From Yuukianura sp. NJ FZ-2021 (taxonomy: Eukaryota): a stretch of 64,000 bases of DNA. A program made the translations under genes and the position numbers. The notes beneath the pieces were generated by a model. The model saw only the letters and a list, made by a program, of their open reading frames with translations, did not search any database and had not been told where the DNA came from. The stretch's first letter is position 1; each line of letters starts with the position of its first letter. Shown here in pieces: positions 32,053 through 64,000 of this stretch. The stretch lies in NCBI GenBank assembly GCA_046563655.1, contig CM102287.1, forward strand, positions 806,001 through 870,000. The letters are read 5' to 3'.

Positions 32053-32153
32053 GTTGACCAGTCAAGGAGTTGGGCGTCAATGAACCTCTTCACGCCAGAA
32101 GCTGCTAACAATAAAGACCATGACACTTGTCGCATTTTAACTTAGTCGTCAAA

Positions 32154-33086: not shown

Positions 33087-33266
33087 CCTTACAGTCGACT
33101 GGTGATGAACTGTGGTTGCATTTTTAGTATCTGGAGATCATTTTCCGAATTTTTGTGTAAACGAAATTCTACAACTACAATCACAGTGTGTAAATCCTTC
33201 TCTTGCAACTGCAACTTGAACAAATCGTCACGAGGACAATCTGTGAAACTTCATCCAACTCAAGAA

Positions 33267-33560
33267 ATGGCTACTCCTGGACCAACCTTTGTACCATCCG
33301 AAGACATGGAAGGCCACGAAAGTTCTCCACCATACACTCTACACTCAACTCGTCAAAAGAAAAAGAAGCATTATCCAGCCCACACCCGCAAAGTATCATC
33401 GGATGGATGGACCCTCTTTTTTGCTGATCATCTTGGGAATACTACAGACAACTCGTATCTTCACATCCGAAACCAGTCGGAACCGGGTGTTGGAATCTGC
33501 ATTCCTGCAGATTTGTTTGACTGTCTAGTTCAAGGACTACTAGAACTCAAACGAACTTGA
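33267..33560 (+). CDS. Small protein, possible PC4-like ssDNA-binding domain
   Basis: YLHIR...GICIPADLFDCLVQGL resembles the PC4 pattern yvdIR...GIsL...f..L; ATG at 33267. Confidence 0.45.
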   Translation: MATPGPTFVPSEDMEGHESSPPYTLHSTRQKKKKHYPAHTRKVSSDGWTLFFADHLGNTTDNSYLHIRNQSEPGVGICIPADLFDCLVQGLLELKRT

Positions 33561-33578
33561 GGGTAAGTTACCTTGAAT

Positions 33579-34235
33579 CTATTTTTTCAAATAGACGATG
33601 CATGACGGGTCGGGAAAAAGATTTGAACGGAAACGGTGTTCGTCATCCTGTTGTTGACTCAAGTCCAAAAACAAGTAGCTGTTTGGCTTGTTTTTGGTTG
33701 CATCCTCGTAAGCAGCTTCAAGGACTGGATGACTTTTTCCATTGTTCATCTGTCTTCCCAGAAACTGAACAATTGTAGAGTCTCTTGGATTTCGAAATAA
33801 CGCCAAGTATTTGCTGTTTAACGTCAAGTTTCTGCAGTTTTTGTAGAAAAAGTTTTGCATTGTAATGATTAGAGACATTGATCTATGATGACTCCCTCGT
33901 GTCACCATTGTGCAAACTTCCTTGGACATTGCAATCTCTTCCATAAAGTCGTCGAGAATTACGAGAGTGGGAACTCGGTTCCCCTCGGCCACGTCCACCT
34001 CCATACCCTTTTGAAATTCCACACAAACGCCCTCCTTGTCCTTGAAAGGTTCATGCACAGAACTTGCAAACGAAGGCAAATCTTCGCCGTAGCAATAGAT
34101 TACTCGCTCAATTTTAGGCTCAATCACTTCATCCTTTCTCAAAATTAATTGATGAATTAATGTACTCTTTCCAGATTGCGTGGCTCCTGCACAAACCATC
34201 ACAAACGGATGACTCAGCTCGAAATGAAAACTCAT
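33579..34235 (-). CDS. A32/FtsK-family DNA-packaging ATPase
   Basis: Walker A GATQSGKST, Walker B LVILDD, RGSHH..SLIITMQNFF, FRNPRD, YLFLDL. Confidence 0.95.
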   Translation of the reverse strand: MSFHFELSHPFVMVCAGATQSGKSTLIHQLILRKDEVIEPKIERVIYCYGEDLPSFASSVHEPFKDKEGVCVEFQKGMEVDVAEGNRVPTLVILDDFMEEIAMSKEVCTMVTRGSHHRSMSLIITMQNFFYKNCRNLTLNSKYLALFRNPRDSTIVQFLGRQMNNGKSHPVLEAAYEDATKNKPNSYLFLDLSQQQDDEHRFRSNLFPDPSCIVYLKK

Positions 34236-34326
34236 CTTTACTTCAACTTTTAATCACTTACTATTGGTCAAACAGTCAAATTCAAACTAAAATTTAAATC
34301 TTTATTAAATTGGCTTATATTAGGAC

Positions 34327-37300: not shown

Positions 37301-38146
37301 GTGTAAAAACTTGTCCATTTGCTCCGTATCCATGGGAAACTGGATACAATCCCAGTCGACTGCATGAGGAAAATTGTCGTAGCTTCTCGGGTCCGTAATT
37401 TTATACCAATGAGCAGAGTCGTTCTTATACAGCGGGTGCAACTCCGACAAAATTGCATATTTGAAACACTGGTCGTCAGAATTTCTAATGTTCACAACAC
37501 ATCCCTTCCTGGACATATGAGCAGGCGTCGCAATCCAGCCATCTCCACGCTGCATTCGGTACACGGAAAATTTGAATGTAATCCATTTGAATCGACTAAC
37601 ACGCCATCCAGAGCCCTTCCTCAAGAATGCGGCTATTGTATCTCCAATTTTGTTTGACATAAGCCGAAGGGTATTTTGAATCATTCTGGGTTCTAAGGTG
37701 ATGTGCGTAAATGAACGGAATGGAAAATCCTCAACTTGTTGTTCAGTGTTACTTCCATGAACTTGTCTTGTCATTTCAACTAGTGCAACACTGCTCACCA
37801 AATACGACCCGATTTCACCATGAATCCTTCTCATCAATTCCCGCAAAGTTGCTGAACAGTGGGCAAAGACACCAGCCACATCCACAAACACATCTTCATC
37901 AAACGTTGCGGTATACTCGCGCGTGGTACCGCCGAAAGCAGTCAATTCATCGAAATGTACTTCATTCTCTGGAGCACTTCCACCCTGTTGGTTTTCAACA
38001 GAAGGATACAGTTCTGGGTGAGTATTGTACTGGTGCTCATCCAACTGCCCAGGATACTCAAAATTTATTCCACACTGAGCACAAAATCGTCTCTTGTAAT
38101 TCCTCAATTCCAACGCAACAGCATCTCGCTCTAAATTGAAGGACAA
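34327..38146 (-). CDS. polB: Protein-primed family B DNA polymerase, read across two 1-nt frameshifts (~36988 and ~36483)
   Basis: N-terminal C2H2 and terminal-protein region (GSGW, NIRNSDDQCF), Exo CDFEC, DHCHLTG, HNFRNYDSHF, DSYQF, KGVYPYEY, DANLLY, KAMGNIVFGK, TDTDS; three overlapping ORFs join at homopolymer runs. Confidence 0.93.
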
Positions 38147-38183
38147 GATTATTTTTAGAAAAAAATTTCATCATCATGACATT

Positions 38184-38645
38184 CTAACCTTCCGTCGGTT
38201 GGTGCTGAAGGGGTACAGATGCCGCCCGTGAACTACTTGTACCAGCAATGAGACCTAAAAATAACCAACAACAATCAAAACTCTGCTCTCGAATTATTAA
38301 TTTGCGATTACCTGGTAATTGAATACCTGGATGCAGTTGTTGAATGTGACTTATAAAATCTCGTTCAGAAAGCCCCCTCAAGTTACATGTTTCGCATCCG
38401 TACTGTCTTCCAGCGAATGCTCCCGACGCATCATAATGCTCAGTTTGAATGTCTTCTAACAATTCACCTATTGTAACAAGAATTTTAAAAACAATGCGTA
38501 TTACTGTATCAATTGTTTTAAGCTTACCAGGTATTTCAATGTCCAGATGGGTTGTTTGGACGTGATGTAAGAATTGTTGTGCACCTAAATTTTGCAATTG
38601 GCATCTGTCACAAGAGTAAAATCTACTAGAACTGAAACCAGACAT
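38184..38645 (-). CDS. Protein with two C2H2-type zinc-finger repeats
   Basis: CDRC...HVQTTH and CETC...HIQQLH, each followed by I.[IL]PG; ATG at 38645. Confidence 0.6.
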   Translation of the reverse strand: MSGFSSSRFYSCDRCQLQNLGAQQFLHHVQTTHLDIEIPGKLKTIDTVIRIVFKILVTIGELLEDIQTEHYDASGAFAGRQYGCETCNLRGLSERDFISHIQQLHPGIQLPGNRKLIIREQSFDCCWLFLGLIAGTSSSRAASVPLQHQPTEG

Positions 38646-38814
38646 TTTTCTCCTCCCTGCATGTGTACTGGTTAAAGGCAACTGAGCAGTGGATTTTCTT
38701 CAAAATGTTACCCTGCTTCACTCAAATGTTTGAGTTGCAAGTTCCAAACCACATTCGCTTTAGACTGTATGAGAAAAAAAATCCTTCCAAAAAAATCCCC
38801 CGACACAAATCGGA

Positions 38815-39657: not shown

Positions 39658-41044
39658 TTAAAGCATTACAATGGTTGCTATAGCAACCTTGGTTCCAAGC
39701 ATGTTTCTGATTCTGGGGTGTAGTGAGGCTTGGACTCTAATGAGTGATTCTGAAGTTGGTTCATTTAGATAGCAGAGTCTCGAAAGTTTGAGCATTTCGT
39801 AGATGTGTGTTTCCGTTGGCTCATTTATCAATTGGACTTTGTTGGTTAAATATTTGATTCTGTTTCGGTGTTCCATTCGATTGTCGAATCTTCTCATAAA
39901 TTCGTGTTTGAATCCACTCCAAGTGTCTGTTTCTGTTCTGACATGTTCCCACCATGCCTGTGATTCTTGTGGTAAAATTGATTTGACCATGTATAACCAG
40001 TGTTGGGGTAGATAGCCTTGACCTTTGAGGTATCGTTCTGCATCTTTGAGGAACGATACGGCTGTAGATTTTTTAGGATTAAATTTGGGAATTGGAATTT
40101 GAGCTTGGACAGTCGTTAGTCGCACCGTTTGGAGTGCTTTGAAGCAGCAGCTCCCTTAGGTCAGGGTCATCCCCAGGTCAAGTCAGGGTGTGTCCCATAG
40201 TTATTGTATATAGTATTAGTAGTTAGTATTTGGGTTTGGTTGAGACGAGTCGAGAGCTCGGAGGGAGATTCGAGCAGAGGCATGTTTTGAGTTAGTTTAG
40301 TGTTGTGTATAGAGCTTAGAGCTCAGTCTGGTTTTGGGATTGCTCGTGTGAGCATTTAGAGTTTATGGGAGTTCTGCCGTGAGCAGTTATTGTTGTATAT
40401 TTATTCACAGATCAGCTCAATAAATATATTTTATATATTTACATCGCTGATCTGCAGTGGATTTGTTCGTGAGTTATTTGTCGTTTGCTGGGCATGAGTC
40501 TGCGGACTCAGATTGGAGTCTGAGAGGGCGTGGCTGCGGCTATTTAGTGTTTTCCGTATCGCCGAGGCGTTACAGCTTGTGTTAGTGTTTCAATTGAAGC
40601 TGTTTGATTTGCTCCTGATTCTGCCATACTGGAATGTCTAGATGCATCTGGTTCTTCTGGGATGCGAGGCAATTGTTTTGGCATTATCTTTTGAGTGTTG
40701 CTTCTGGCTGTGTCAGAAGTGTTGATCGCAACATGAATAATCTTTGCTAGTTGGGCCAATTGTTCATTAGTAAAGGCTGAACTTTGCGCTTTCGTGCTGC
40801 TTGGGCCAGGTTTTTCTTTATGGCGGCCCATCCCTGTTTTGGTTTTCTTACGTGGTGGATCTTCAGCCTCTAAGTCACGAAAGACGTTCTCGTCGTCATC
40901 TTCTTCTACATCGATTTGTTGTTGCTCAGTTTCTTGCTGTTCCTCTGTGGTATACATCGTACTTCCGCGTCTACGCTCACTTCTGGTTGTGCTGACGTAT
41001 TCTGGATCGAGCGGTTTCAAGTTTCTCAAGTCTCGAAAGCTCAT
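39658..41044 (-). pseudogene. gag: Gypsy-like Gag interrupted by a solo LTR and abutting the Polinton end
   Basis: PKFNP...AWWE...TWSGFKHEFMRRF...Q..NEPTETHI capsid motifs; removing the LTR and one TSD restores the frame (TLTQA-LQTVRLTT). Confidence 0.8.
40140..40574 (+). mobile_element. Solo LTR (435 bp) with 4-bp TSD GCTT
   Basis: TGAAGCA...CGTTACA, flanked by GCTT at 40136-40139 and 40575-40578; internal AATAAA; related to the LTR at 411-835. Confidence 0.9.
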
Positions 41045-41678: not shown

Positions 41679-44345
41679 TTAGCTATTTTGTATACAAATT
41701 TTATTTAAAAGAGCTTCAGGTAGCTCTTGGAAGTTTAGTTTGATTTTATTGATCGCAACACAGAGTTCAGAGAAATAATCATCTTCATATGAATGTTCGA
41801 ATAAGATTTTAAGAGTATCTGTTTTAGATTTTTTGAGGTAATAATGATTGTCATTGACTTCTGTTAATTCTTTTAAATCTCGAATTTGAAATATGAAGCT
41901 CTGAATTTTTGGGTGTTTAATCCCAAGACCACCTAATGCCTTTGGCAGATAAATGAATGGTTTTTTTAACCAATTTCTTTTTCTTTCCCATATATAATCG
42001 CAAATAACGTCTTCAAGATTTTTGATAAAATTTTCTGAGGGTTTCAGGATTTTTAAAAGGAAGCTGGTAAGTGGAAGGATAAACAAATTCAAAATCTTCG
42101 ATTTCAGAAATAGACTAGAGTTTGGATACTTGATTTTAAAAGAATCAATTTTTAACTTTATTTTACCCATCAAGGAGTTCCAATTATTTTCAAAGTTTTC
42201 GCCAAAGACGACTCCTAGGACTTTAATTTGTTTTACACTTTTAAAATTTGTTTGTATGTTCAGATGTTTCCATTTCCCAATAAGTAGAACTTCAGTTTTA
42301 GAGTCCTTAATTTTTCCGCCAGAATACTTTCCGTAAATTTCAAACTCTTTAACAACAACGTCAAATTGACTCAGTTCAGAAATAAAAATTGTCGTGTCGT
42401 CGGCATAAGCACTGATGTTAGAATTAGGATAATTTAGGAAAGGGCTAGGTCGAATTTTAGTTAACTTTTCAGAGAGGTTTCGAACCAAAGGTTCGAAGCA
42501 AAGAATATACAAAGAAGACGCAATAGGATCACCTTGCTTTACGCCTTTGCCAATTTTAATCTTATTCGTTAAGCCATTGCCATAGTTTACATGGACAAAA
42601 CTGTTTTTGTAAAGTATCTTTATTGAGTTGACAAAGATCTGGGGAAATCCATAGTACTTTAAAATCGAAAATAAATAGTCATGGTTTATATTATCGAATG
42701 CAGATTCTTGGTCAATTGCAAGAATTGCCCCATCGTTATTATCGTTAATATTTTCGATCAAAAATTTTAAGTTTTGGAAAATATTCCTTCCCGGAACATT
42801 GCAGGTTTGAGCAGGAGAAATCAAATAATCAAGATATTTTGAAATTCTATTTTTAAAAATCGTGGAGAAAACTTTGTAGTCAGAATTTGACATAATGATT
42901 GGTCTCCAATTGGAAAGATCAGTGGGGTTATCTTTTTTGTAAATTAGGGTGACAAGTCCACATTTAAGAGAGTCTGGCATTTCATCGCGAATTAAGCATT
43001 CGCTCCATAACCATTCGAATATTTTAGTAAATTCTGGTATGAATGTTTTAATAAATTCACTTGAAATCCCGTCAAGACCGGGACAGGTATCATTCTTCAG
43101 TTGAGAAATTGCAATTTTGATTTCCTCAGAGGAAATGACTTTAGACATATAATCAATTTGGTCATGATTCAATTTTGGTAAAAGTTGGAAAAAATTTCCT
43201 TGTATGTTGGTTTGAACATTATCAGTTTTAAATTTTGCTGAAAAGAAGTCAAAAAATAATTTCGCTTTAGTTTCATCGGAATAATTTTTGAAAACAGAAT
43301 CAACAGAGACTTCACAGTTAACGTTAAAGAGTTTATTTGGAGTATATTCAAATTTGTCTTCGAAACGTTCGTTATCTGTAATGAGGTCAAAAAATTTGTT
43401 ATGATTGTTTTTCATGAGAAACTTCATCTCATTATAATTTGAAACTTTTACGAAATGTTTGTAATTTATAAAGGAAATTGCGCATTTCTTTAATTTCCAC
43501 TTCAAAAGTTCGTAAGAGGTGAACGTCTTCACGTTCAAATTTAAAAAATCATTTAGAAGTTGTTTAACTTGGACGATAAGATAATCGTCACTTAATATGT
43601 AATTCGGAAATTTCCAAATTCGAAAAGGATTTTTGTGTAGAAAATTAAATTTTGTACAAATCAATTTGTGATCAGAGAATGACGGTAGAATGTCGACAAA
43701 TTTAACGTTGCTAATAAGTTTAGCGCTTACATAAATGCGATCAAGTCTGGCCTTAGGTTGGTGATACTGGTTGCCAGTATGTGTAAAAGAAATTTTTGTG
43801 GGAAAAAAAATTCTGAAGGAATCGTGTAAATTGAAGTCTGTATATAATTTTAACATTGAATTTCGAAATTTAGCGTTATTTGTGCTTCTGTTAATTGAAT
43901 CAAGATAAACATCATCAACATAATTCCAGTCACCGCAAAGAATAATATTCGCATGTGGAATATTTGTTAATTTTGTTTGAAGTGCGCCGTAGACTAAATT
44001 GAAATCGCGTAGACTGTGAGGAATATGAATATTGAAAATATCAAATTCATTATTTAGGTGTTTTAATCTAATATATTGTAGTCTACCTTCAGCTAATATT
44101 TCACTTAAAACAAAATTAAACTTACTGTTGAAAAAAATTGCTGTGCCACTGAAAGGGGCAATTGGAGGGTTATAGGAAACTGAATATCCTTGAAGAATTA
44201 CTTTTTGATCGAACTTTGGATCTAGGTTCGTTTCTTGTAAACATAAAATATCTGGTTTAAAAAGATTCAATAATTTTACTAACTTAATTTTAGATTGTAG
44301 ATTTTTTAAGCCTTGGGTGTTAAAGCTATATACAGACAATACCAT
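41679..44345 (-). CDS. LINE ORF2: APE endonuclease and reverse transcriptase (C-terminus missing)
   Basis: SFNTQG, LCLQET, GDWN, RLDRIY, SDH (APE); PGLDG, WRPI, GVKQGDPIAS, YADD (RT). Confidence 0.95.
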   Translation of the reverse strand: MVLSVYSFNTQGLKNLQSKIKLVKLLNLFKPDILCLQETNLDPKFDQKVILQGYSVSYNPPIAPFSGTAIFFNSKFNFVLSEILAEGRLQYIRLKHLNNEFDIFNIHIPHSLRDFNLVYGALQTKLTNIPHANIILCGDWNYVDDVYLDSINRSTNNAKFRNSMLKLYTDFNLHDSFRIFFPTKISFTHTGNQYHQPKARLDRIYVSAKLISNVKFVDILPSFSDHKLICTKFNFLHKNPFRIWKFPNYILSDDYLIVQVKQLLNDFLNLNVKTFTSYELLKWKLKKCAISFINYKHFVKVSNYNEMKFLMKNNHNKFFDLITDNERFEDKFEYTPNKLFNVNCEVSVDSVFKNYSDETKAKLFFDFFSAKFKTDNVQTNIQGNFFQLLPKLNHDQIDYMSKVISSEEIKIAISQLKNDTCPGLDGISSEFIKTFIPEFTKIFEWLWSECLIRDEMPDSLKCGLVTLIYKKDNPTDLSNWRPIIMSNSDYKVFSTIFKNRISKYLDYLISPAQTCNVPGRNIFQNLKFLIENINDNNDGAILAIDQESAFDNINHDYLFSILKYYGFPQIFVNSIKILYKNSFVHVNYGNGLTNKIKIGKGVKQGDPIASSLYILCFEPLVRNLSEKLTKIRPSPFLNYPNSNISAYADDTTIFISELSQFDVVVKEFEIYGKYSGGKIKDSKTEVLLIGKWKHLNIQTNFKSVKQIKVLGVVFGENFENNWNSLMGKIKLKIDSFKIKYPNSSLFLKSKILNLFILPLTSFLLKILKPSENFIKNLEDVICDYIWERKRNWLKKPFIYLPKALGGLGIKHPKIQSFIFQIRDLKELTEVNDNHYYLKKSKTDTLKILFEHSYEDDYFSELCVAINKIKLNFQELPEALLNKICIQNS

Positions 44346-44360
44346 TGTATTAGTTTGTAT

Positions 44361-45587
44361 TTAGGTAGACTGGGAGTCTTCAGTCCAATTTCTAAGTAAC
44401 TTTTCTAAAATCTTACGCAAAATAGGATGTGATGTTGGTGCAACTTCGCTTTTAAGTAGTAGAAGTGTCGTTTTCATTTTTGCCCGGGTAACAGCAACAG
44501 TGATGAGGGTAGATTCAATTTTTTTCTTTGTTACTCTTCCTGATTTGAAGGACGAAAGAAATGAAACTAAGTCTTCGATCTGGACACCCGGTGGGAGACT
44601 AATTTCTGGAAGTGGCTCAAGTTGAACGTTTTCCATCAATGAGTCATCGCGATCAGATTCAACTTCGGAATTATTTGATGATGGTGGAAGTACAGGAGCA
44701 TGTTGAGGAGTTGAAGTTGAAGGGCCACTGAAGATCGGTGGTCGAATTTGACTGGGAATGCCAATGCTATCCGGTTTTTTAACTTTTCGTGGTGATCTTT
44801 TTGTTCGTTTCCGTACCCTCTCAAAACCATCTTCGTCTTTTTCCATTTCGTCAGTGTCAAATTCAGAGGTTATTTCACCTTCAGATTGAGTAGTATTTTG
44901 AACGTTGAGAACTCCTTTCGATTTTGCAAGGTCAGCCCATGTTGGAATGGAAACTGGAGTGCTGATATTGGTAACTGGTTTTTTTGGAACGTTCTTTGGA
45001 TCATTTGTAGAAAGTGCAGCAAGTTTCTTTTTGCACTTACTAGCGAAGTGGTTAGTTCCATTGCAGAAATGGCATCGCTGTGCTTCTGTGTCAAGTTGTA
45101 TGGTGTACTGACGACCTTCGTAATTCAGAATGGTTGACCTGGGAATTTCTGATTTTTGAACAGTAAGTTCGATAGTAGCCTCATGCATGAACGTGTTGAT
45201 ATGCTTGAGCTTTTCCGGCAGTGAACGGAACTTGATCTTAGATGTGGCAAGAACCTTACCAAATCCACTTAGTGAAGTGACAATTAGCTCATCAGGAATG
45301 AATGGCGGTACATTTCGCATGAAAATCTTCGAATAAGATCTAGTATAGGGTGACACCGGAAAACAAGAGTCTCCAACTTTGATTGTTCCAGAACCGATTG
45401 ATTTCATCATATCATCTTCATTTTCAAAGAAGATTGCAACTGTGCGAGGGCCAAACATTCCCGCATCAGTAATTGATTTAGGATCTACCAAATCAGACAC
45501 TGCACTGAGGTAATCGAATAGTCGATACTTTGGTAGGAATGGTATAATAATACCATTGTCCTTAGCTGGATTGATATCCAGCTCCAT
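44361..45587 (-). CDS. LINE ORF1 nucleic-acid-binding protein (RRM-like region and CCHC knuckle)
   Basis: RNVPPFIPDELI...L..FGKV; CHFCNGTNHFASKC; directly upstream of ORF2; first ATG at 45587. Confidence 0.88.
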   Translation of the reverse strand: MELDINPAKDNGIIIPFLPKYRLFDYLSAVSDLVDPKSITDAGMFGPRTVAIFFENEDDMMKSIGSGTIKVGDSCFPVSPYTRSYSKIFMRNVPPFIPDELIVTSLSGFGKVLATSKIKFRSLPEKLKHINTFMHEATIELTVQKSEIPRSTILNYEGRQYTIQLDTEAQRCHFCNGTNHFASKCKKKLAALSTNDPKNVPKKPVTNISTPVSIPTWADLAKSKGVLNVQNTTQSEGEITSEFDTDEMEKDEDGFERVRKRTKRSPRKVKKPDSIGIPSQIRPPIFSGPSTSTPQHAPVLPPSSNNSEVESDRDDSLMENVQLEPLPEISLPPGVQIEDLVSFLSSFKSGRVTKKKIESTLITVAVTRAKMKTTLLLLKSEVAPTSHPILRKILEKLLRNWTEDSQST

Positions 45588-45906
45588 CTCGCCCTTCAAA
45601 TGGGAACTTAAGACTTACAGGTTGTTTGTAAGAACAGTTTTGATTGATTGATTAAACACTGATTACTGTCACTGATCCACACTGAACACTGATCCACGGA
45701 TAGAGGAGAACATTTTCTATCTGTTAGTGTGTGCAAACTATAGGAATGTAACACTTATGACAGCAATTAATTCAGTATTTCAGGAGAGGCTGTAGTCTCA
45801 CTACCAGCTGATTTCTCCAAAATCAAAATTTGACTAAATGCAAATTTGACGCTTGTCATTCACAATTCACATAGTAATCATTTAAGCCGGATTTTCTACC
45901 CTCTAA

Positions 45907-47567: not shown

Positions 47568-48155
47568 TTAAGTTTCGCACATCGTTTTCAGTCGCTTCAA
47601 TTTCTTCGATTGTTTTTTCGGATGCTGATCTTGCTTGAGCTTCAACTCTTTCCTGAACTTGTGCGTTTGAACAAAGGAAGGCAACTTGATAATGTCGAGT
47701 TGCTCCCCTCCATTTTCTATGATCCGAAACATTAGCCATAATGCAAGAAGACTACAACAATCCGGGTACATTAGTTTCTTCGAGTTTTGGAAATTGAATT
47801 TCTTAAAGTTGAGTTTTATTGCAGGCAAAGACTTTCGGATGGCGAGCATAACGTTGGTTTTGGCCGAGACTTCGTATATTCCATTGTCCAATTGACAAAA
47901 GTAGAATACAGTTCCAATGTCCAGATCGATGTAGAAGAGCGACACATGAGCGAATATATTTGGTGGACAATTTCCAGAGGGGATGAAGACGACAGGTAGC
48001 AATATCTTCCGTTTCGCCGTGTTTATGTCTGGGAAGGAGATCATTCTTTTGGAATATTTTTGCTTTACCGATGCGCACACCCCAACGTGAAAACCTTCGA
48101 TTTCTACTAGCGCAGAGCCCTCATTAAATTGTGAAATCTTCACATCTTTGCTCAT
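47568..48155 (-). CDS. Divergent Ulp1/SENP-like (clan CE) cysteine protease-like protein
   Basis: KILLPVV...HVSLFYID...TVFYF...DCCSLLALWLM follows the Ulp1 order ILIP-HW-L..ID-YFDS-DCG. Confidence 0.55.
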   Translation of the reverse strand: MSKDVKISQFNEGSALVEIEGFHVGVCASVKQKYSKRMISFPDINTAKRKILLPVVFIPSGNCPPNIFAHVSLFYIDLDIGTVFYFCQLDNGIYEVSAKTNVMLAIRKSLPAIKLNFKKFNFQNSKKLMYPDCCSLLALWLMFRIIENGGEQLDIIKLPSFVQTHKFRKELKLKQDQHPKKQSKKLKRLKTMCET

Positions 48156-49706
48156 GCTTTCTTTGGAAATGTTTTACAATCGAATTAAATTCAGCACTTT
48201 CAATACCGTCGAAAAAAATTAACCTCGACATTACAAAAACTCTTTTAACGCTGCTTGACGGAAACGAAATACGGATTTGTAAAATTAATTTTTTGCAGAA
48301 TCAAATTGGAAATGATCGCTTATTTTCTTTGTTTGTAAATATAAATACAGAAAGCCCGTTGTCATGTTGATCTTACGTCAGGTCAAAAGGTCAAAAACTA
48401 TTTTATGAACATTTCAAGTATTGTTAACTTTTTTCAACGAAAAAAAAAATTCACTATAAAAATAGATTCAAATATGTCATGAATGAACCTATAAAGCTGT
48501 CTGACGACATTATTACAATTTGTATTTATTCAAATTATATAAAATACATTATATAATTGAATGGCTTCGTGGAAAAACAACCAAACAGATTTTTGGTTTA
48601 ACTTAAGTTGCACAAAATTTGTTTGTAAACAAAGTTTCAAACGAAATCGGAAGTGTGAGATAATTCGCATGTATACTACTTTATCGATTGAAAGTCTATC
48701 TGTCAGTCTGTCCGTTGGTCACCCGCTAAAAGATTGCCAGTACAGACTACAAATATTCTACACACGTGTCTTGGCATACCCACTACGTTTAAGACCACCA
48801 GTGTTGGTGGAAGCTGTAACGTCCAGTAACTTAATTACCACTTCCACTTAAAATCCACGGGAAGAAATTTGACCCAAATGGACGAAACTATAAGTGGATG
48901 AAAGAAATAAAAATTTGTTAGAAATTAAGAAAAAATTCAGATTTTAAATTGCAAAATATAGCATAAAGCTTTTCTTTCGTTATTAAAATTAATTAATTCA
49001 AACTTATTTAAAAACCATATTTTCTTCGTTTTTGTATTGTATTTTAATTTTTCTTTAGCTTTTTGCACTAATTCAAATCCGGAGGGCAAAGCTCTGCCCC
49101 TTTGAATTCATAGCTTGCGGTTGTAGATTCATCCATTTCGGCCATTTCTTCCACTGGATATCCAGTTATGGATGAAATGCCGAAAAAATGGATATCCACC
49201 AGCACTGATAACCACATTTGCATTACTTCGAATATTTCGGTACAAAATACTTCCGATGAGACGAATTTCCTGTACGCTTAAACGTACGGGTATTAGTTGC
49301 AGCTTTCATTGGATACCCATTGGGAGAAATGAGTCCCTAGTGGCAGAAACTTGAGGTGAAGGAAAACAATTAAAAAATTCAGCTCGAAATTCAAATTAAC
49401 TTAAGTATACCGCAAAAATTCAATCAATTATAATTTGAAACTATAGGATGATATGAAACGCTTTCCTTTTTCCTTGCAAAGACGAATTATTTACAATTTA
49501 CATATTCGGACAATGTTCAGTTCAGTTCTGTGAATTCGTCTACTCTGCCAGTTTCATCCACTGGATGTGCAGATCCACCAGTGGATGAAGTCGAAGTGCT
49601 GAAGTAGGTAGGCATCCATCAACACCACCGATGAAATATGATTTATCTCTTCAAAACTTTAAAATAACGTGTTACCCCGTTCTAAAGCCATTTTTACTGG
49701 CTATGC

Positions 49707-51200
49707 AGTAGAGTGTTCGAGGGTGAGTTTGCATACTTTGCCCCGGGGGCTAGTCGGGCGCAATATTGGGGAGGGGAAAAACCCCTCAAAAAATACATAA
49801 TGACAAAATCTCAATATCTAAAATGAGATAATGTCAAACGTGCCAACAACAAAAAAGCCTTTTAGTTAATTGTCAATTACGGCTAATCAACAAATACCAA
49901 TGACTCTGTATTTTTGGAAAAGGTATTGGAATGTGACCCAACCTTTTTCCGGATTATGATTTATATTTTTGTACTTCTGAAAACTCCTTCTTTGTGTCTG
50001 CAACGAAAAAGTTTAAAAAGTTCTTGTTTGAACTTGTCAATTCCTAGAATTTTCCAACACCCGAGGCAAAACAAATACTTTTCTAAAATAGAATTTGTAT
50101 TTCAGGCCTCAGCTGTCCTTTCAATTCAAAGAGTTTTAAAAAAAAATTTCAGTTCATTCCCAACATTCGACCTATTCACTAGTCGCAAATCAAGACACTT
50201 AAATTTAAACTCAATTAAAGCAGACAGCAGCATTTACTATACAAAATCAGCACTTACAACAATACGGATTCTAAAATAGTAATTCAACCCTTTTCTTGGA
50301 AAAGGCTCGCTTCTGTTGGAAAAGGTATCCCCCAATATTTTAAAAGATGGCTACAGAGTACAAAGTATTCAAGCTGAAACGCTTGAACACCTCATGGCTA
50401 CAGCGCTGGATTTATCCAGCCCAGTCCTGGGGAAGTCTTTGAGCCGTGTGAGCCAGCCCTTGGACGCCAGCCCTTGGACGCCAGCCCTCGGACGCCAGCC
50501 CTCAATTCGCATGAATTTTTAACGTAATATAACAACTTCACTGCATAATACAATTGCATCTCTGTATAATACAATGGCCTCTCTGTATAATACAATTGCA
50601 TCTCTGTATAATACAATGGCCTCTCTGTATAATACAATGGCCTCTCTGCATAATACAATGGCCTCTCTGCATATTACCATGGCCCAGTTGTATAATACCA
50701 CAACGTCATTACATAATGCCGAGTTTATTCTGTACAACATAGCGAGTTTGCGAGAGTAAAGTCTAGACTTTGTCAATGTCACGGGAACTTACTCCGTGAG
50801 TACACCTTGCAGAGTTCTTCCTCGGGATTATTTCCCGCAGGTAACCTTCCTTCGAGAGTCAGATCATCGTCAATACCATGGTCACGTTGTATAATACCAT
50901 GGCCACATTGTATAATACCATGGTCACGTTGTATAATACCATGGTCACGTTGTATAATACCATGGTCACGTTGTATAATACCATGGTCACGTTGTATAAT
51001 GCCATGGTCACGTTGTATAATACAATAACCTCACTGCATAATACAACATTTTTTGTCAATTTTACATCCAACCACCACCACCACCACCACAACCCCAACG
51101 TGCCCACCCATGCAAAAGTATAAATAGCGACGTTGACTTGCTCATCTCTCAGTTTCATTTCAGACGTTGAGCCGTGAAGACGTGAAGATTTTACCATCTG
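49707..51200 (+). repeat. Left TIR (~1494 bp) with internal 14-bp and two 21-bp tandem arrays
   Basis: Reverse complement of 53528-54989; mirrored ORFs in the track (e.g. 50316+ and 54172-). Confidence 0.95.
51119..51154 (+). promoter_or_regulatory. TATA box plus initiator inside the left TIR (mirrored in the right TIR)
   Basis: TATAAATA at 51119 and TCAGTT at 51149 (30-nt spacing), ~70 nt before the ATG at 51223. Confidence 0.65.
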
Positions 51201-51222
51201 AAGATTCTGTGGACTATACATC

Positions 51223-52038
51223 ATGGATACCAGTACAGCGTGCGATATTTGCTGCAGACAATTCTCACGAAGGGACGCATTGAAACGACACAAGTTAACT
51301 TGTCATAGTAGCGTCGCAGTATCGAAAATGCTTCAGGTATGCATGAATCAGCGGGAAAAATCTACTATGTTTCGACATGTACACTCTGGGAAAAAGTTTG
51401 ACCCGCATTTGGTTGCACCGTTTACTATGTGCATCAGTGGAATGACTCAGAGCGGCAAAAGCACCCTTGTGAAGCAAATACTTCTACGACGAAACGAAAT
51501 TATCGAGACTAATATTGACAAGCCATTGGAACGTATCATGTATTGTTACACTGAGTTCCAGCCTACGCTGTTTGGAGAATTGAAGACCAAGATTCCAACT
51601 ATACAATTTCATCGTGGACTTCCTGAAAAATGGCATGACGGAACCGACAAGCCGTCAGTCGTCGTCCTTGACGATTTGATGCATGAAGCAGGCAAAAACG
51701 GAGAAGTTGGAGCTGCGTTCACAAGGACTTCGCATCACCGCAACGTATCACTCATCATTCTTGTGCAAAAATTTTTTCACAGGAATATGAAAGAAATCAC
51801 GTCAAACTGTCACTACATTGCTCTAATGAAGAATCCGCGAGACTCTCAATTTGTAGCTTGTCTTGGACGTCAAATGAATGGAGGAAAGAAGAATACAACC
51901 ATGGAAGAAGCCTACAAGGAATGCATGTTAAAGCAATATGGATATCTATTCATCGATTTAACTCAACGACAAAATGATTTGTTTCGCATTAGAGATAATA
52001 TATTTCCTGAAAATTGTCGAATCTATGCTAATGAATGA
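51223..52038 (+). CDS. A32/FtsK-family packaging ATPase with N-terminal C2H2 zinc finger
   Basis: CDICCRQFSRRDALKRHKLTCH; GMTQSGKST; VVVLDDL; RTSHHRNVSLII; KNPRD; GRQMNGGK shared with the 33579 ATPase; AATAAA just after the stop. Confidence 0.93.
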   Translation: MDTSTACDICCRQFSRRDALKRHKLTCHSSVAVSKMLQVCMNQREKSTMFRHVHSGKKFDPHLVAPFTMCISGMTQSGKSTLVKQILLRRNEIIETNIDKPLERIMYCYTEFQPTLFGELKTKIPTIQFHRGLPEKWHDGTDKPSVVVLDDLMHEAGKNGEVGAAFTRTSHHRNVSLIILVQKFFHRNMKEITSNCHYIALMKNPRDSQFVACLGRQMNGGKKNTTMEEAYKECMLKQYGYLFIDLTQRQNDLFRIRDNIFPENCRIYANE

Positions 52039-52142
52039 ATGAATAAACACATTACACGATAAAAGTTCTATTTTCAAGTTTTTTATTTTGAAAATTCGGA
52101 ATCTAACGAATATACAGTCATAAAGGTGTATAATTCTACGAA

Positions 52143-53507
52143 ATTACGCTAGTGAGAAACTCTCCAAGTATTGGTAATGCGGCAGCGAGAAGAGCTGGCA
52201 GGAACCCACCGTGCTGTATAAGTAGTTTTTTCTTGTCTTCAATCGATCCTTTAGCTTCTGCAACACGTTTAATCTTATATCGATGCGGTCTCAAGATATT
52301 TTTGACGGTGGCCTCAATAGGAATGTTGCCCTGGATTACGTCCTGAACACATTTGTGTAACCCAAGAATTTGACCAGGAGACGCTGTGGAGAGAAGTGTC
52401 TCGCGTATAATAGGGAGTGTTGGTTCATCTGGTGGAGAAATTGATAATGTCGTATGGGACCTGGTGATGGTTTAGCTCCTCCAGTTTGTCTATACTCTTC
52501 TTCCCCTTCTTCATCCCTTTCGTCTTCCTCGTTTTCCTCCTCTTCTTCTACTTCTTCTTCCCCTTCTTCATCCCCCTCATCTTCCTCGTCATCATCTTCT
52601 TCTTCATTTTCTACATCACTTTCCACGTGCGGGCGATTTCTAGAAAGCTTTTTGGGTTCATCTCCACCGAGCAAGCCTCGGTGGCTGATCGGAAGCAGAT
52701 ATTTTGGAATGCCTGTCTGAATCATAAAGTCTACGATGACAGGAATCATTTGTCTTGTCAACTTATATCTTCCATCCGCAAGTTTTCGTATTCCCTCCTC
52801 GAACTCGCTCCTGGGTATGTTGGCATCACCCAGACTAACGCTATTGTTCGCAAAGGTTGCTCCATTTGCTACAAAAAATTGTGCTAGCTGTTTTCCAACA
52901 GCTGAAAACTGGTCCAGAGTAAACGGTGGAGTTGTCGGTGCTGCTGTCGGCGTTTCATCTTTCGCTATTTGCGAGTCTTGGAAAATGGCATCTCGAGCGC
53001 GTCATTCGGCTTTACCACAGTATTTGACCAACCATTCGTTGGATTTTCTGACCAGGTCGTAATTCGGTCATATCTGTCTTCGGTTTTTCTGGCTGACTTT
53101 TCCGGTCCACCATCCCATCCGGTAAAGTGACTTGTAGCCATATCATTCAACCGCCTATCGTTTACAACGTTCACATTGACGTAGCCTTCCCTTTGCTTCC
53201 GTTGATTTTCCCAGTTCTGGCGTAATTCCGTTTGCATCATATGATTCTGAAGTTCGATTGGAATGTTGTTCCCAGAATCTCGCGAATTACGCTCATGAAG
53301 CTCCATTGGTCCACGGCTCTGAGACATGTTCATTGTATGTTGCTGTAAGTATTGTACGGGTTTAGTATCAAGCAAAAAGCCATCATGGATTTGCTTTTCT
53401 CCAAAATAACTTTTGCAAGGGCTGTTTTGCTGAGACTCATATGTCTCAAGCTGATCCAGTAGACTGTTGTAGTCGTCTTGGTGAACAAGAATGTATTTTT
53501 GCGCCAT
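52143..53507 (-). pseudogene. Disrupted Polinton structural-type gene(s): MAQKYILV... region, acidic tract, then protein X-like QHGGFLPALL domain
   Basis: Stitched from ORFs 52965-53561 and 52336-52761 plus a third frame ...CVQDVIQGNIP...KKKLLIQHGGFLPALLAAALP; needs about two frameshifts and one in-frame stop. Confidence 0.65.
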
Positions 53508-53527
53508 GACTGTTAGCCTAACCGCTC

Positions 53528-54989
53528 CAGATGGTAAAATCTTCACGTCTTCACAGCTCAACGTCTGAAATGAAACTGAGAGATGAGCAAGTCAACGTCG
53601 CTATTTATACTTTTGCATGGGTGGGCACGTTGGGGTTGTGGTGGTGGTGGTGGTGGTTGGATGTAAAATTGACAAAAAATGTTGTATTATACAATGTGAC
53701 CATGGTATTATACAACGTGACCATGGCATTATACAACGTGACCATGGTATTATACAACGTGACCATGGTATTATACAACGTGACCATGGTATTATACAAT
53801 GTGACCATGGTATTATACAACGTGACCATGGTATTGACGATGATCTGACTCTCGAAGGAAGGTTACCTGCGGGAAATAATCCCGAGGAAGAACTCTGCAA
53901 GGTGTACTCACGGAGTAAGTTCCCGTGACATTGACAAAGTCTAGACTTTACTCTCGCAAACTCGCTATGTTGTACAGAATAAACTCGGCATTATGTAATG
54001 ACGTTGTGGTATTATACAACTGGGCCATGGTAATATGCAGAGAGGCCATTGTATTATGCAGAGAGGCCATTGTATTATGCAGAGAGGCCATTGTATTATG
54101 CAGAGACGCCATTGTATTATGTAGAGAGGCCATTGTATTATGCAGTGAAGTTGTTATATTACGTTAAAAATTCATGCGAATTGAGGGCTGGCGTCCAAGG
54201 GCTGGCGTCCAAGGGCTGGCGTCCAAGGGCTGGCGTCCAAGGGCTGGCTCACACGGCTCAAAGACTTCCCCAGGACTGGGCTGGATAAATCCAGCGCTGT
54301 AGCCATGAGGTGTTCAAGCGTTTCAGCTTGAATACTTTGTACTCTGTAGCCATCTTTTAAAATATTGGGGGATACCTTTTCCAACAGAAGCGAGCCTTTT
54401 CCAAGAAAAGGGTTGAATTACTATTTTAGAATCCGTATTGTTGTAAGTGCTGATTTTGTATAGTAAATGCTGCTGTCTGCTTTAATTGAGTTTAAATTTA
54501 AGTGTCTTGATTTGCGACTAGTGAATAGGTCGAATGTTGGGAATGAACTGAAAATTTTTTTAAAACTCTTTGAATTGAAAGGACAGCTGAGGCCTGAAAT
54601 ACAAATTCTATTTTAGAAAAGTATTTGTTTTGCCTCGGGTGTTGGAAAATTCTAGGAATTGACAAGTTCAAACAAGAACTTTTAAAACTTTTTCGTTGCA
54701 GATACAAAGAAGGAGTTTCAGAAGTACAAAAATATAAATCATAATCCGGAAAAAGGTTGGGTCACATTCCAATACCTTTTCCAAAAATACAGAGTCATTG
54801 GTATTTGTTGATTAGCCGTAATTGACAATTAACTAAAAGGCTTTTTTGTTGTTGGCACTTTTGACATTATCTCATTTTAGATGTTGAGATTTTGTCATTA
54901 TGTATTTTTTGAGGGGTTTTCCCTCCCCAATATTGCGCCCGACTAGCCCCCGCGGCAAAGTATGCAAACTCACCCTCGAACACTCTACT
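53528..54989 (-). repeat. Right TIR (~1462 bp)
   Basis: Reverse complement of 49707-51200 with few substitutions and different tandem copy numbers. Confidence 0.95.
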
Positions 54990-55881
54990 TATGCCCTCTT
55001 TCAGCATTTTGTCCAGGTTATATTCACTGGATAAATAGTTTTATCCGAATGAAATCCAGCTTCGGGTGGATGAAATATGTAGATGAACCCTCAGTAAGGG
55101 TTAAAATATACCAAAATGGCTTCCCATACATTTCTGGAAACAAACGCAGTGAAAACTTAAACTCATCTCTGACGTTAATTTAAGCAAAATAATTTCTATC
55201 TGAAACTATGTCTGCGTATTCCTTCAGTAATAGAAATCAGATTAATTTGTAAAATCTCAATCAACCAGAACACCCTTCCGCTCCTCCGATAACACTGTTT
55301 CCGATTTGCAAAATTTGAAAATATTATTGAAAAAGTTTGTTCCCAAAGCGACGAGTAGACAGTTTACGGTTTGTGTCAATTTGCACATGCACAACTTTTT
55401 TTGAAATTCTGTTTGGTGGTTTTTCCACGAAGCCATTCAATTAATGAAAATTAATTATACACTAATGGAATAAATAAATCGTCATCACAACGACAATGAT
55501 GTTTATTTTGAGTGTTGTTTAGCATTATCAATAATTTTTTTTTTTCGAATTTGTTGACGCGAATAATTCTGCGGAAGTTGTGATACGTTTGAGTCAACTT
55601 CGTACAAACTTAACGTTCTGAAGATAACGTCTTCCTAATCCTGTGAGTTTTAGCGTCTTTGTCAAGCATTTTCGATTAACTAGCCATCATAGCACCGAAG
55701 AAAAAGGCAACTTCCAAACCCAAAACCTAACCTAACCTAACCAAAGCTGAGCCTGCCCTGAAGGTTGCAAGAATTGACGAATCAGAACGTAATTCGTAGA
55801 ATTATTTATTTTTTAACATAATTAATATATATTTTCTGATATATATCTTATTTATTCAATAGCAAACGAAAATAATGACGT

Positions 55882-63362: not shown

Positions 63363-64000
63363 TTAATTTAATTTTTCCTCTTCTTCCGTTTTTTCTTGTT
63401 TTTGTGTTACGGCCAACCGAAAGTCGCCAAATGCAAAACTGAATGTGTTGTCGACAAAATGGCGCTTGATGTCAAATGAACCAATTCCACGACGATTCAG
63501 GATGGTGGTAACCATTTGATCATTTTCAAATTTTACCAACGGCACTTGAATCTGAGCTTGCTTTTCAAAGTTCAAAATGTAGCTTCGAAAGGTTTCGTGT
63601 TTTACATTTTCCTTGGCCCAATCCCGTCCAATTCCTCCGCATTTCAAAATTTCCTTTTCGTTTGACTCTGGATAGTTTAAGATCGAATACTGATTAGGAC
63701 TCGTAGCACAGACTTCGTAGATTCCGTCCGTCACGATTTTCAAAACTCCCGCTCTTCCCCTATTGGAGTCATCGTAGAGCTGATGATGCTTTGGTAAATT
63801 TGAAAAGTCAAAAATGTGTTTTAGGCTCCTTAGTTTTTGTAAATACGTCCGGTCAGGGTCGATGACCTTGACTAGGAGAGAGTCTGTGTTGTTTAAAATA
63901 TTTTTGACATCGCCAAACGTTGGCAAAATGTAATTGTAGTAGTAGTCGTAGAGCATAGTTTTTGCATTGCTCATAATCACAAGTGACAGAATACGCAAAT
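63363..64000 (-). CDS. C-terminal part of a divergent Polinton-type PolB paralog, probably catalytically inactive (partial, runs off the window)
   Basis: AKTMLYDYYYN, NNTDSLL, FDFSNLPKHHQLYD, G.LK and FDIKR..F.FG align by eye to the 34327 PolB; DTDS is replaced by NTDS. Confidence 0.75.
   Translation of the reverse strand, partial: LRILSLVIMSNAKTMLYDYYYNYILPTFGDVKNILNNTDSLLVKVIDPDRTYLQKLRSLKHIFDFSNLPKHHQLYDDSNRGRAGVLKIVTDGIYEVCATSPNQYSILNYPESNEKEILKCGGIGRDWAKENVKHETFRSYILNFEKQAQIQVPLVKFENDQMVTTILNRRGIGSFDIKRHFVDNTFSFAFGDFRLAVTQKQEKTEEEEKLN

Follow-up and report, generated by a model that had tools for sequence, protein, structure and literature searches.

A two-gene, 5.3-kb Polinton-type element with long inverted arms in a Yuukianura genome assembly

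Introduction

A stretch of 64,000 nucleotides from Yuukianura sp. NJ FZ-2021 (contig CM102287.1; hereafter, the window) contains a short sequence with Polinton-style ends and only two genes. Is this a complete mobile element and, if so, is it moved by the enzymes of others, or does it keep a packaging module on purpose? An earlier note on this DNA preferred a satellite that hijacks helper capsids. Our analysis identifies a small and unusual form of a known Polinton kind that was recently mobile, and we consider it probable, with some reserve, that it is a copy belonging to a young, non-autonomous family of Polinton/Maverick (adintovirus-type) elements moved by helper enzymes.

Boundaries and insertion

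The mini-element occupies positions 49707–54989 of the window (5,283 bp), has AGTAG...CTACT ends and is flanked by a 5-bp TATGC duplication (Table 1). The left terminus from 49707, AGTAGAGTG..., is identical to the reverse complement read from 54989 downward, and the ends (AGTAGA...TCTACT) have the 5'-AG...CT-3' form of terminal inverted repeats (TIRs) of the (AGT)2 type. Within the window, the terminal 20 bases matched only twice at up to three mismatches, both times at the element ends, against 0.01 expected from 100 shuffles. In contigs from public runs X2 and X3, position 49703 is followed directly by 54992, so that 5,288 bases (the element plus one TATGC) are absent, and this empty site is supported by a depth of 119 in X2 and of 98.1 on a 411-nt contig in X3. 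Because the target-site duplication (TSD) is accompanied by a precise empty site, this is a complete small Polinton-type element, all 5,283 bp of which entered the chromosome together at a staggered cut of 5 bp. The earlier description of a complete 5.3-kb mini-Polinton, with TIRs of about 1.5 kb forming over half of it and a TATGC TSD marking integration as a unit, therefore stands. The TSD, confirmed by the empty-site joint, is 5 bp rather than 6 bp in length; Mavericks were reportedly described by Pritham et al. in 2007 with TSDs of 5–6 bp. Intact vertebrate Mavericks, in an excerpt of PMC8097293, have (AGT)2-type end motifs, genomes of 12.7–24.6 kb and 6-bp TSDs, and we count the difference in TSD length against the explanation that we prefer.

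Table 1. Features of the mini-element and its flanks (window coordinates)
Feature	Position	Strand	Basis or detail
Target-site duplication, left copy, TATGC	49702..49706	.	sequence; empty-site joint 49703->54992
Left terminal inverted repeat, 1,497 bp, begins AGTAGAGTG	49707..51203	+	alignment, end search
14-bp tandem units, left arm (families D4, D5)	50452..50502	.	right-arm mirror 54184-54253
21-bp units, first left-arm array, 7.5 copies	50541..50698	.	right-arm mirror 54023-54161
21-bp units, second left-arm array, ~8 copies	50872..51044	.	right-arm mirror 53684-53835
Core-promoter-like stretch, left arm	51119..51154	+	TATAAATA 51119-51126, TCAGTT 51149-51154, spacing 32 bp
Gene 1, C2H2 zinc finger and A32/FtsK-type packaging ATPase, 271 aa	51223..52038	+	open frame
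AATAAA, 4 bp past gene 1 stop	52042..52047	+	sequence
AATAAA, 49 bp past gene 2 stop	52082..52087	-	sequence
Gene 2 piece c, relative of small Polinton proteins ending ..LLIQHGGFLPALLA..	52136..52471	-	frame, relatives
Gene 2 piece b, second 'gXab' half and acidic tract of ~45 residues	52336..53001	-	frame, relatives
Gene 2 piece a, start MAQKYILVHQDDY..., first half of 'gXab' family	52965..53507	-	frame, relatives
Right terminal inverted repeat, 1,465 bp	53525..54989	-	alignment, end search
Mirror promoter-like stretch, right arm	TATAAATA 53609-53602, TCAGTT 53579-53574	-	sequence
Target-site duplication, right copy, TATGC	54990..54994	.	sequence; empty-site joint

Inverted arms

Together, the two arms make up 2,962 of the 5,283 bp (56%). 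When aligned with each other, they were identical in 1,459 of 1,481 columns (98.5%; the columns extend slightly beyond the inner ends), and the length differences between them comprised one unit of 14 bp, two units of 21 bp and three smaller gaps of 2, 1 and 1 nt. The 21-bp units, about 30 copies over both arms, sit 835–1,340 bp from the element end. Each arm also contains a promoter-like stretch, in which we take TATAAATA to be a TATA box and TCAGTT an initiator from their consensus. The TATA box and the leader are the same in both arms, the common leader reaching as far as 51203 in the left arm, and both genes start about 20 bp inward of the arm.

Gene content

The core between the arms measures 2,321 bp. 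Because gene 1 and gene 2 fill it, it has no gene for PolB, integrase, protease or capsid, and none was found there by reading frames and Pfam, in agreement with the earlier note. Gene 1 combines a zinc finger (residues 7–28) with an ATPase whose Walker A and Walker B motifs read GMTQSGKST and VVVLDD, respectively. Its match to Pfam Pox_A32 (E = 6.8e-6, 26.2 bits) exceeds the gathering cut-off of 22.8 and its frame is open, bearing out the intact A32-type ATPase first noticed in this DNA. In a 27-sequence alignment, it keeps all 11 invariant columns, including G73, G78, K79, D150 and D151, and has K at residue 183, where at least 90% of the aligned sequences have N. Among 329 candidates, 56 relatives of the ATPase were found at E ≤ 0.001, with a top identity of 74%; the values of pN (0.20–0.27) and pS (0.77–0.84) in this lineage show that long-term purifying selection acts on it. 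The AATAAA motifs after the two genes are presumably pol II-type signals.

Gene 2 is convergent to gene 1, starting at 53507 on the minus strand and ending in ...LLIQHGGFLPALLAAALPILGEFLTSVIS* at 52136. In the window copy, it is split over three frames (53507–52965, 53001–52336 and 52471–52136) and is broken at two places, which the earlier note did not mention. Gene 2 joins two families that are encoded separately in full-size Polintons, a family of ~200 aa ('gXab') and a small protein ending in QHGGFLPALL. The N-terminal family had no match in Pfam or PHROGs, and piece c, which is without its own Met, is related to small Polinton proteins of 110–134 aa. Pfam Adeno_PX matched two of five members of the small-protein family (E = 0.005–0.008; 16.5 bits, the cut-off being 25) and did not match piece c of the window at E ≤ 10, and PDB chain 9lr9_E, named 'PX', matched the tail family with an E of 1.2. 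Both the Adeno_PX model and the PDB chain single out exactly the C-terminal ..QHGGFLPALLAAALPILG.. stretch, and we regard the tail as weakly protein-X-like on this likeness. Of the convergent, protein X-like gene proposed earlier, the orientation and the QHGGFLPALL tail were confirmed; the Adeno_PX matches lie below the threshold and the frame is broken twice. The Polinton 'PX' of PMC4028283 (excerpt) is a penton and is distinct from adenovirus protein X. The window copy is decaying, as shown by the two breaks in its second gene and by the change at a nearly invariant residue of its ATPase.

Relatives and the neighbouring Polinton

A full-size Polinton lies at ~31.2–38.7 kb of the window, 16 kb from the mini-element. 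The rve integrase gene at 32124–33083 is part of it, and the PolB genes of the window (34330–38167 and 63366–63998) are all outside the mini-element. Its ATPase is 42% identical to that of gene 1, no DNA likeness was found between the two elements, and the neighbour is unrelated to the mini-element. With the variant copies described below, this agrees with the earlier view that the mini-element is not a lone, near-identical copy derived from a nearby full-size Polinton.

Both gene 1 and gene 2 have relatives in full-size Polintons. In the locus L003 and in the neighbouring Polinton, relatives of gene 1 (at 33.6–38.2 kb in the latter) stand directly after PolB and beside the rve integrase, relatives of each half of gene 2 are present, and the ATPase and gene-2 families are internal and in the same orientation. 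In L001 and L002, the two closest relatives among those with enough sequence, the zinc finger, ATPase and gene-2 family form a single open frame (551 and 534 codons, respectively), and the synonymous sites between them are saturated (pS 0.84). Because the two families are internal and co-oriented in some relatives and fused in one frame in others, the convergent layout of the mini-element is not a one-step deletion of any relative layout observed, which counts against the reading that we prefer. L002 (2.8 and 2.0 copies) and L004 (4.2 copies, in an array cut by the contig end) have period-21 arrays 5' of the gene for the zinc-finger ATPase, and in both this gene is preceded by 625–711 bp of non-coding DNA, not by PolB.

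Copies in public runs

In each of the four runs, contigs show length differences from the window at both frame breaks of gene 2, and therefore variant copies of the mini-element exist; at one break, both forms are present in X3 (1,916.7 of 3,708.7 depth). By likeness to the window, the contig pieces form three classes, with 88 pieces at 99% or more, 85 at 95–99% and 116 at 90–95% in X1. In the ATPase, the copies are only ~0.4% different from the window (3 letters in 775–1,103 bases), so their open frames are uninformative on selection within the family. A second organism, B, also has the core, which shows 5 differences over 1,158 bases; no contig was placed on the left flank. No second full copy was seen in the run contigs, whose depth is not a copy number. 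Under a 31-letter rule, no contig among the matches listed bridges a filled junction; X1 record 1 enters the left end by 29 letters and X1 record 7 enters the right end by 27.

Origin and mode of spread

In the non-autonomous Polinton reading, which we consider probable, the integrase of an autonomous Polinton reading the same ends would cut and paste or copy the mini-element, which would probably also use the protein-primed polymerase of this helper. The two genes may be the end-adjacent genes of a larger parent, the remainder of which was removed by internal loss; alternatively, they may have been brought beside the ends as the arms grew inward, taking in the promoter. They would probably be transcribed from the candidate arm promoters, and the spread of the mini-element need not depend on them. 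The earlier note dismissed a deletion derivative; one that keeps whatever adjoined its ends remains the simplest account. A search for an autonomous Polinton with the same ends, as the note had suggested, found the 20-base end nowhere else in the window, IMG/VR or the prokaryote genome set, and the lack of a helper with matching ends in these collections counts against the reading. The same applies to arm word depth, which in X1 and X4 is not above twice the core word depth and does not point to an arm-sharing partner in greater numbers, depth not being a copy number.

A satellite or hitch-hiker of a Polinton or adintovirus, in which the packaging module is kept on purpose and helper capsids are loaded, is a minor possibility that nevertheless deserves weighing. 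The zinc-finger ATPase and gene 2 would recognize the ~30 21-bp units of the arms and load the small genome. The stronger claim, that this is the first animal Polinton/adintovirus satellite, an old self-standing two-gene lineage whose ATPase and fused partner read their own 21-bp arrays and use helper capsids, is in our view unlikely. The single-frame fusion in L001 and L002 argues that both proteins work together, and the period-21 arrays that precede the ATPase gene in L002 and L004, the promoter-like stretch and AATAAA at each of the two genes and the purifying selection on the ATPase lineage are in keeping with a satellite. However, L002 and L004 are related (dS 0.45) and derive from a single metagenome, so the 21-bp feature is documented in two lineages. 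A single C2H2 finger rarely gives sequence specificity, and the mini-element has no capsid-resizing gene. The window copy is broken, and open frames are expected by chance in copies ~0.4% from the window. The adenovirus packaging signal, according to an excerpt of PMC4189039, consists of seven ITR-adjacent repeats bound by the ATPase IVa2 and L4-22K, which favours the model by analogy, but it fails beyond ~300 bp, whereas the arrays here lie 835–1,340 bp inside. In addition, 5.3 kb is put at one third or less of a Maverick genome of 12.7–24.6 kb (PMC8097293, excerpt).

More improbable is a genome of the defective-interfering type, a deletion form that keeps the ends for replication and integration and out-competes its parent; its long arms would come from end repair in protein-primed replication, and its products, if made, would disturb the helper. 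Terminal-repeat growth is a product of end repair in linear protein-primed genomes, and here the inverted repeat covers more than half of the element and extends inward exactly through the promoter and leader, which are common to two unrelated genes. Subgenomic left-end DNA also occurs in incomplete adenovirus particles (PMC4189039, excerpt). Nevertheless, arms of 1.5 kb already present in the parent explain the structure equally, and long TIRs are known, reaching 1,447 bp in vertebrate Mavericks (PMC8097293, excerpt) and, in butterflies, ~2 kb for TIRs that contain genes (10.1101/2025.02.07.637071, excerpt).

That the locus is a host gene pair or domesticated remnant, no longer mobile, between two old repeats is very improbable: the ordinary pol II-type signals at the genes would suit it, but the precise empty site and TSD, the likeness of the arms, the variant copies, organism B with its core and without a contig on the left flank, and the broken gene 2 all oppose it. 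A false inverted duplication in the assembly is scarcely credible, since, although no contig among the matches listed spans a whole arm (the records seem cut at within-arm repeats), contigs from two studies continue out of gene 2 and into the right arm (for 100 bases in X4 record 27 and for 43 in X1 record 5), the empty-site joint skips exactly the element plus TSD, and the arms, unlike a false duplication, differ at 22 aligned columns and in repeat-unit counts.

Comparison with known systems

The mini-element shares with Polintons/Mavericks, including animal adintoviruses, the (AGT)2-type AG..CT ends, long TIRs, a short TSD and a packaging ATPase of the A32/FtsK type; the two gene-2 families also occur in full-size elements. 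It differs from them in having no PolB, integrase, capsid or protease gene, and in its size (5.3 kb vs 12.7–24.6 kb) and TSD (5 vs 6 bp; PMC8097293, excerpt). The PolB-less, polinton-related insertions of butterflies are likewise mobile derivatives, with TIRs of ~2 kb that contain genes, and show presence/absence polymorphism; however, those surveyed measure at least 12 kb and carry many Polinton genes and LINE/gypsy cargo, whereas the mini-element has two genes (10.1101/2025.02.07.637071, excerpt). That survey covered only variants of at least 12 kb, and one Polinton survey discarded everything below 10 kb as incomplete (PMC4028283, excerpt). A full-text search of a limited literature collection found no report of a non-autonomous Polinton retaining a packaging ATPase.

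The tail of gene 2 recalls adenovirus pX/mu and the pX-like C-termini of adintovirus PLA2X and GasderminX in placing a ..GG-hydrophobic tail on a larger accessory protein, but its N-terminal partner is neither PLA2 nor gasdermin (PMC8502044, excerpt), and, compared with adenovirus pX, the gene-2 family matches below the Adeno_PX threshold and the window piece not at all. The recurring fusion of the ATPase and gene-2 family suggests a likely role as packaging partner for a widespread Polinton protein with no assigned function.

Phage satellites of the PICI type bring their own small terminase and hence their own packaging specificity. The mini-element resembles phage satellites as a small capsid-less element with packaging-related genes beside repeated DNA sites, but its helper dependence, packaging redirection and particles are hypothetical, its host is eukaryotic and its ATPase is of another family. 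If the satellite reading were true, it would be a eukaryotic counterpart of phage satellites bringing their own terminase specificity. A two-gene form would also offer a natural test of particle formation by Polintons, which are virus-like transposons; should they form particles, a satellite would be expected to look like this, lacking a capsid gene and keeping only a packaging motor and a partner. As a recently mobile form, it would also give the minimal cis sequences accepted by the Polinton integrase and polymerase.

Transpovirons, linear DNAs of ~7 kb with TIRs that are carried in mimivirus particles, are also small few-gene genomes and ride with a larger virus (PMC5499653, excerpt), but no genes in common were seen, and the mini-element is chromosomal, with a TSD, in what is apparently an animal genome. 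Non-autonomous DNA transposons of the MITE type likewise have TIRs and a TSD, lack a transposase and are moved in trans; whereas MITEs are short and non-coding, the mini-element keeps two complete transcription units.

Architecture and boundaries of the mini-element

The mini-element, a two-gene mini-Polinton, is 5,283 bp long (window positions 49707–54989). Its left end starts with AGTAGAGTGTTCGAGG, as does its right end when read in reverse complement. TATGC immediately flanks both ends (49702–49706 and 54990–54994), and the first 20 bases of the mini-element, allowing ≤3 mismatches, matched the 64-kb window twice, both times at its ends (0.01 expected). The same 20-base end had no match in IMG/VR or in the prokaryote genome set. 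The two inverted arms together make up 56% of the mini-element and are identical at 1,459 of 1,481 aligned columns. Their lengths differ by one unit of 14 bp and two of 21 bp, together with three small indels. The structure described in the earlier note, with AGTAG ends, TIRs of ~1.5 kb, and a TATGC TSD, was correct.

In each arm, repeats of 14 bp occur along with two 21-bp-unit arrays (in the left arm, ~7.5 and ~8 copies), and the two types of repeat unit have the core TGTATAATAC(A/C)ATGG in common. At the inner end of each arm, TATAAATA is followed 32 bp on by TCAGTT, a putative TATA-plus-initiator arrangement. Beyond TCAGTT, the arms are identical for ~50 bp more, and the identity ends ~20 bp before the ATG on each side, meaning that two unrelated genes share a promoter-like stretch and most of the leader, which is free of ATG on both sides. 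The core between the arms (2,321 bp) is fully occupied by the two convergent genes, and Rfam and tRNA scans of window positions 49000–55700 detected nothing.

Features of the mini-element and of the second Polinton in the window
Feature	Position	Strand	Description
Left inverted arm	49707–51203		1,497 bp
Right inverted arm	53525–54989		1,465 bp
Gene 1	51223–52038	+	271 aa; one C2H2 zinc finger (residues 7–28), then A32-type packaging ATPase
Gene 1 start ATG	51223	+	
AATAAA after gene 1 stop	52042–52047	+	
Gene 2 start ATG	53507	−	
Gene 2, piece a	52965–53507	−	
Gene 2, piece b	52336–53001	−	
Gene 2, piece c	52136–52471	−	
AATAAA after gene 2 stop	52087–52082	−	
Second Polinton, PolB	34330–38167	−	Endonuclease VII domain; C2H2 fingers upstream
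Second Polinton, ATPase	33582–34253	−	
Second Polinton, rve integrase	32124–33083	+	
Second Polinton, small protein	31687–32061	−	..GGAVLPLLL
Second Polinton, a/b-family gene	31250–31726	−	

The stretch was present in five coded public sequencing runs, of which four (X1–X4) were aligned to it; all consisted of contigs, none recorded as RNA. X1–X3 came from one sample, possibly the one behind the assembly. In X2 and X3, position 49703 was joined to 54992, skipping 5,288 bases, which correspond to the mini-element and one TATGC. The flanks of the empty-site contig differed from the window at 3 of 132 letters on the left and, over 269 letters on the right, at 11 letters with a further 6 in gaps, so that it may come from the alternative allele or from a paralog of the flank; in either case, the joint fixes the boundaries of the mini-element. 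Contigs crossed the boundary between gene 2 and the right arm, and among the matches listed none bridged a filled junction under a 31-letter rule, the nearest reaching 29 and 27 letters. The core was also present in organism B, a second coded organism (5 differences in 1,158 bases; 12 in ~1,250), from which no sequence aligned on the left flank. In word depth, the core exceeded the flank contigs severalfold (~1,958 vs. 119–150 in X2; 171–206 vs. 32–48 in X1), a ratio that does not represent copy number.

Contigs of X1 and X2 also joined 49227 to 55027, a jump of 5,799 bases with a single intervening letter, and the depth over 49000–49223 was very high; another short insertion, itself located in a high-copy repeat, may enclose the mini-element. 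A 41-bp GC-rich piece (49741–49781, mirrored at ~54915–54955) is located 35 bp inside each end. Its word depth was 10- to 100-fold higher than in the remainder of the mini-element, and on either side contigs ran from it into different sequence; it seems to belong to a short repeat of far greater abundance. Some contigs had different sequence in place of the outermost 34 bp of the mini-element.

Gene 1 and its relatives

The gene 1 protein scored 26.2 bits against Pfam Pox_A32 (cut-off 22.8), and its C2H2 finger gave weak zinc-finger matches in Pfam and the PDB. Among 329 candidates, 56 relatives were detected at E ≤ 0.001, the best being 74% identical, and neither single-protein nor alignment searches found a relative in IMG/VR. 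Most relatives are ~220 aa in length without a finger, and an N-terminal finger like that of gene 1 occurs in at least five of them (P0004, P0006, P0009, P0028, and P0029). When 27 sequences were aligned, gene 1 kept all 11 invariant columns; residue 183 is K in the window copy and N in at least 90% of the sequences. The long contigs differed from the window at three places in the ATPase, two of which were synonymous third positions and the third this K/N site, where the contigs carried the family's usual residue. Differences within the mini-element family were too few for dN/dS, and dS was saturated against the metagenome relatives.

Relatives of the ATPase were located on five metagenome contigs (L001–L005). 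The closest finger-bearing relatives, in L001 and L002 (68% and 58% identical to gene 1), each form a single open frame (551 and 534 codons, respectively) in which the finger and ATPase are joined to the family matched by pieces a and b of gene 2 (the a/b family). Because L001 and L002 are saturated at synonymous sites relative to each other, this fusion is not a one-off error. Non-coding DNA, not PolB, precedes the finger-ATPase gene in L002 (711 bp) and L004 (625 bp), and contains short period-21 arrays (L002 355–513; L004 1–87), with the same period as the window arrays but a different sequence. L002 also contains a 380-aa frame (2589–3728, −) convergent with the ATPase fusion; it matches no Pfam family and is unrelated to any window protein. 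In L005, an ATPase fragment (278–757), 80% identical over 92 residues, gives way to unrelated sequence next to a 742-aa frame and probably represents a dead copy within a region of host genes.

In L003, part of a full-size Polinton, the C-terminus of PolB is followed 48 bp on by the ATPase; next come a gene of unknown identity, the rve integrase gene, and a small gene ending ..LLIQRGGFLPALAAALL. A second, unrelated Polinton piece with the same gene set was found in the window at ~31.2–38.7 kb, containing PolB, an ATPase, an integrase, and a relative of piece c followed by a relative of pieces a and b; no capsid genes were seen beside it (31250–38699). Its ATPase is 42% identical to gene 1. A mini-element near-identical to a full-length Polinton would have pointed, according to the earlier note, to recent deletion; it has no DNA likeness to this full-size neighbor.

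Gene 2 and its two protein families

In the window copy, gene 2 is split over three frames, and the frame must change within 52968–53001 and within 52339–52471. Introns, for which GT..AG pairs were sought by eye, were rejected as the cause, because the contigs of all four runs differed in length from the window exactly inside both intervals, by non-multiples of three. The sizes of these differences would bring the three pieces into one predicted frame. X3 contained both length forms at the second interval.

Pieces a and b matched a protein family whose members mostly stand alone and are ~190–260 aa long, with 67 representatives at E ≤ 0.001 and 14 at E ≤ 1e-10 in a full HMMER search; a word-index search at near lengths scored none of 284 candidates. 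Pfam and PHROGs searches with 40 members found no family matching more than three of them, and a sequence profile against the PDB gave nothing below E 0.77. The AlphaFold model of one member (L001 residues; pLDDT 80.1, pTM 0.47) paired a long helical hairpin with a compact alpha/beta domain (approximately residues 130–215), which entered the fold searches only within the whole model. In these searches, Foldseek returned no match at E ≤ 0.001 in the PDB or BFVD, and wide VIA-align matched the helical hairpin only (best Z 6.9 over 50 residues). The names of the cluster members were uninformative; one was labeled Cas3 by its source, most likely a mislabel.

Piece c, which is preceded by an acidic tract of ~45 residues, matched small proteins of 110–134 aa ending ..LLIQHGGFLPALLA... 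For the protein X-like ending attributed to gene 2 in the earlier note, the likeness was weak: the Pfam adenovirus protein X model matched exactly this tail in two of five family members (E 0.005–0.008), below the cut-off, and did not match piece c of the window itself. A PDB chain named PX matched the family tail at E 1.2. PMC8502044 describes adintovirus accessory proteins, PLA2X and GasderminX, that end in a pX-like domain; the putative pX-like tail of the piece-c family agrees with this, although the likeness is weak on present evidence.

Identity, origin, and possible packaging

The mini-element is best read as belonging to a young family of small Polinton derivatives that are non-autonomous. 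Strictly, it does not count as a Polinton, since it lacks both of the genes that define the group (PMC5499653). Lacking integrase and polymerase genes of its own, it needs those of a helper: a helper's integrase most likely reads the AGTAG ends and inserts the mini-element with a staggered cut of 5 bp, and copying may be carried out by the protein-primed polymerase of a helper. The simplest origin is an internal loss from a parent whose long arms bore promoters, with all the sequence separating two end-proximal genes removed. TIRs as long as 1.4–2 kb, some with genes inside, are on record (PMC8097293; 10.1101/2025.02.07.637071). None of the full-size layouts examined had the ATPase and gene 2 families at opposite ends or convergent, which counts against a one-step origin.

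The earlier note proposed a helper-dependent satellite, which would supply its own packaging specificity to hijack helper capsids, and the present results make this reading more concrete. The recurring fusion of the ATPase with the gene-2 family argues that the two act together, and period-21 arrays accompany finger-bearing ATPases in two lineages. Adenovirus offers a precedent, with its packaging ATPase binding near-end repeats together with a partner (PMC4189039). Against the satellite, the arrays here are far from the end of the mini-element, its genome is at most a third of the normal size, the copy in the window is decaying, and no helper was seen when the 20-base end was sought in the window, IMG/VR, and the prokaryote genome set. 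The open frames, too, carry no information on selection because the family is so young. Weighing these points, we regard a satellite of this kind as unlikely, at perhaps one chance in four or five.

As for the small Polinton-derived family itself, PolB-less mobile Polinton derivatives have been reported, though only large ones (10.1101/2025.02.07.637071), and small Polinton elements were filtered out of surveys (PMC4028283). No two-gene, ATPase-keeping form was found in the literature searched. The gene-2 family may already be named in paper supplements, for example, among the "Adintoc" groups of PMC8502044.

Other features in the window

A tandem satellite with a period of 407 bp (49 copies, 95% matches) occupies window positions 835–20845. 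Two frames at 21379–21732 and 30897–31250, 9.5 kb apart on the same strand, are identical over 118 aa and probably represent the LTRs of a retroelement abutting the second Polinton. A 201-aa frame (47571–48173, −) lies 1.5 kb to the left of the mini-element; its His..Asp..Gln..Cys order, noted by eye, resembles that of adenain/Ulp1-type proteases, which is a guess given that the frame has no Pfam match. The C-terminal part of a third PolB (63366–63998), 21% identical to the PolB at 34–38 kb, runs off the window end. A LINE-type retroelement with an endonuclease and a reverse transcriptase is located at 41682–45614, and a gag/Arc-capsid-like frame at 39661–40155.
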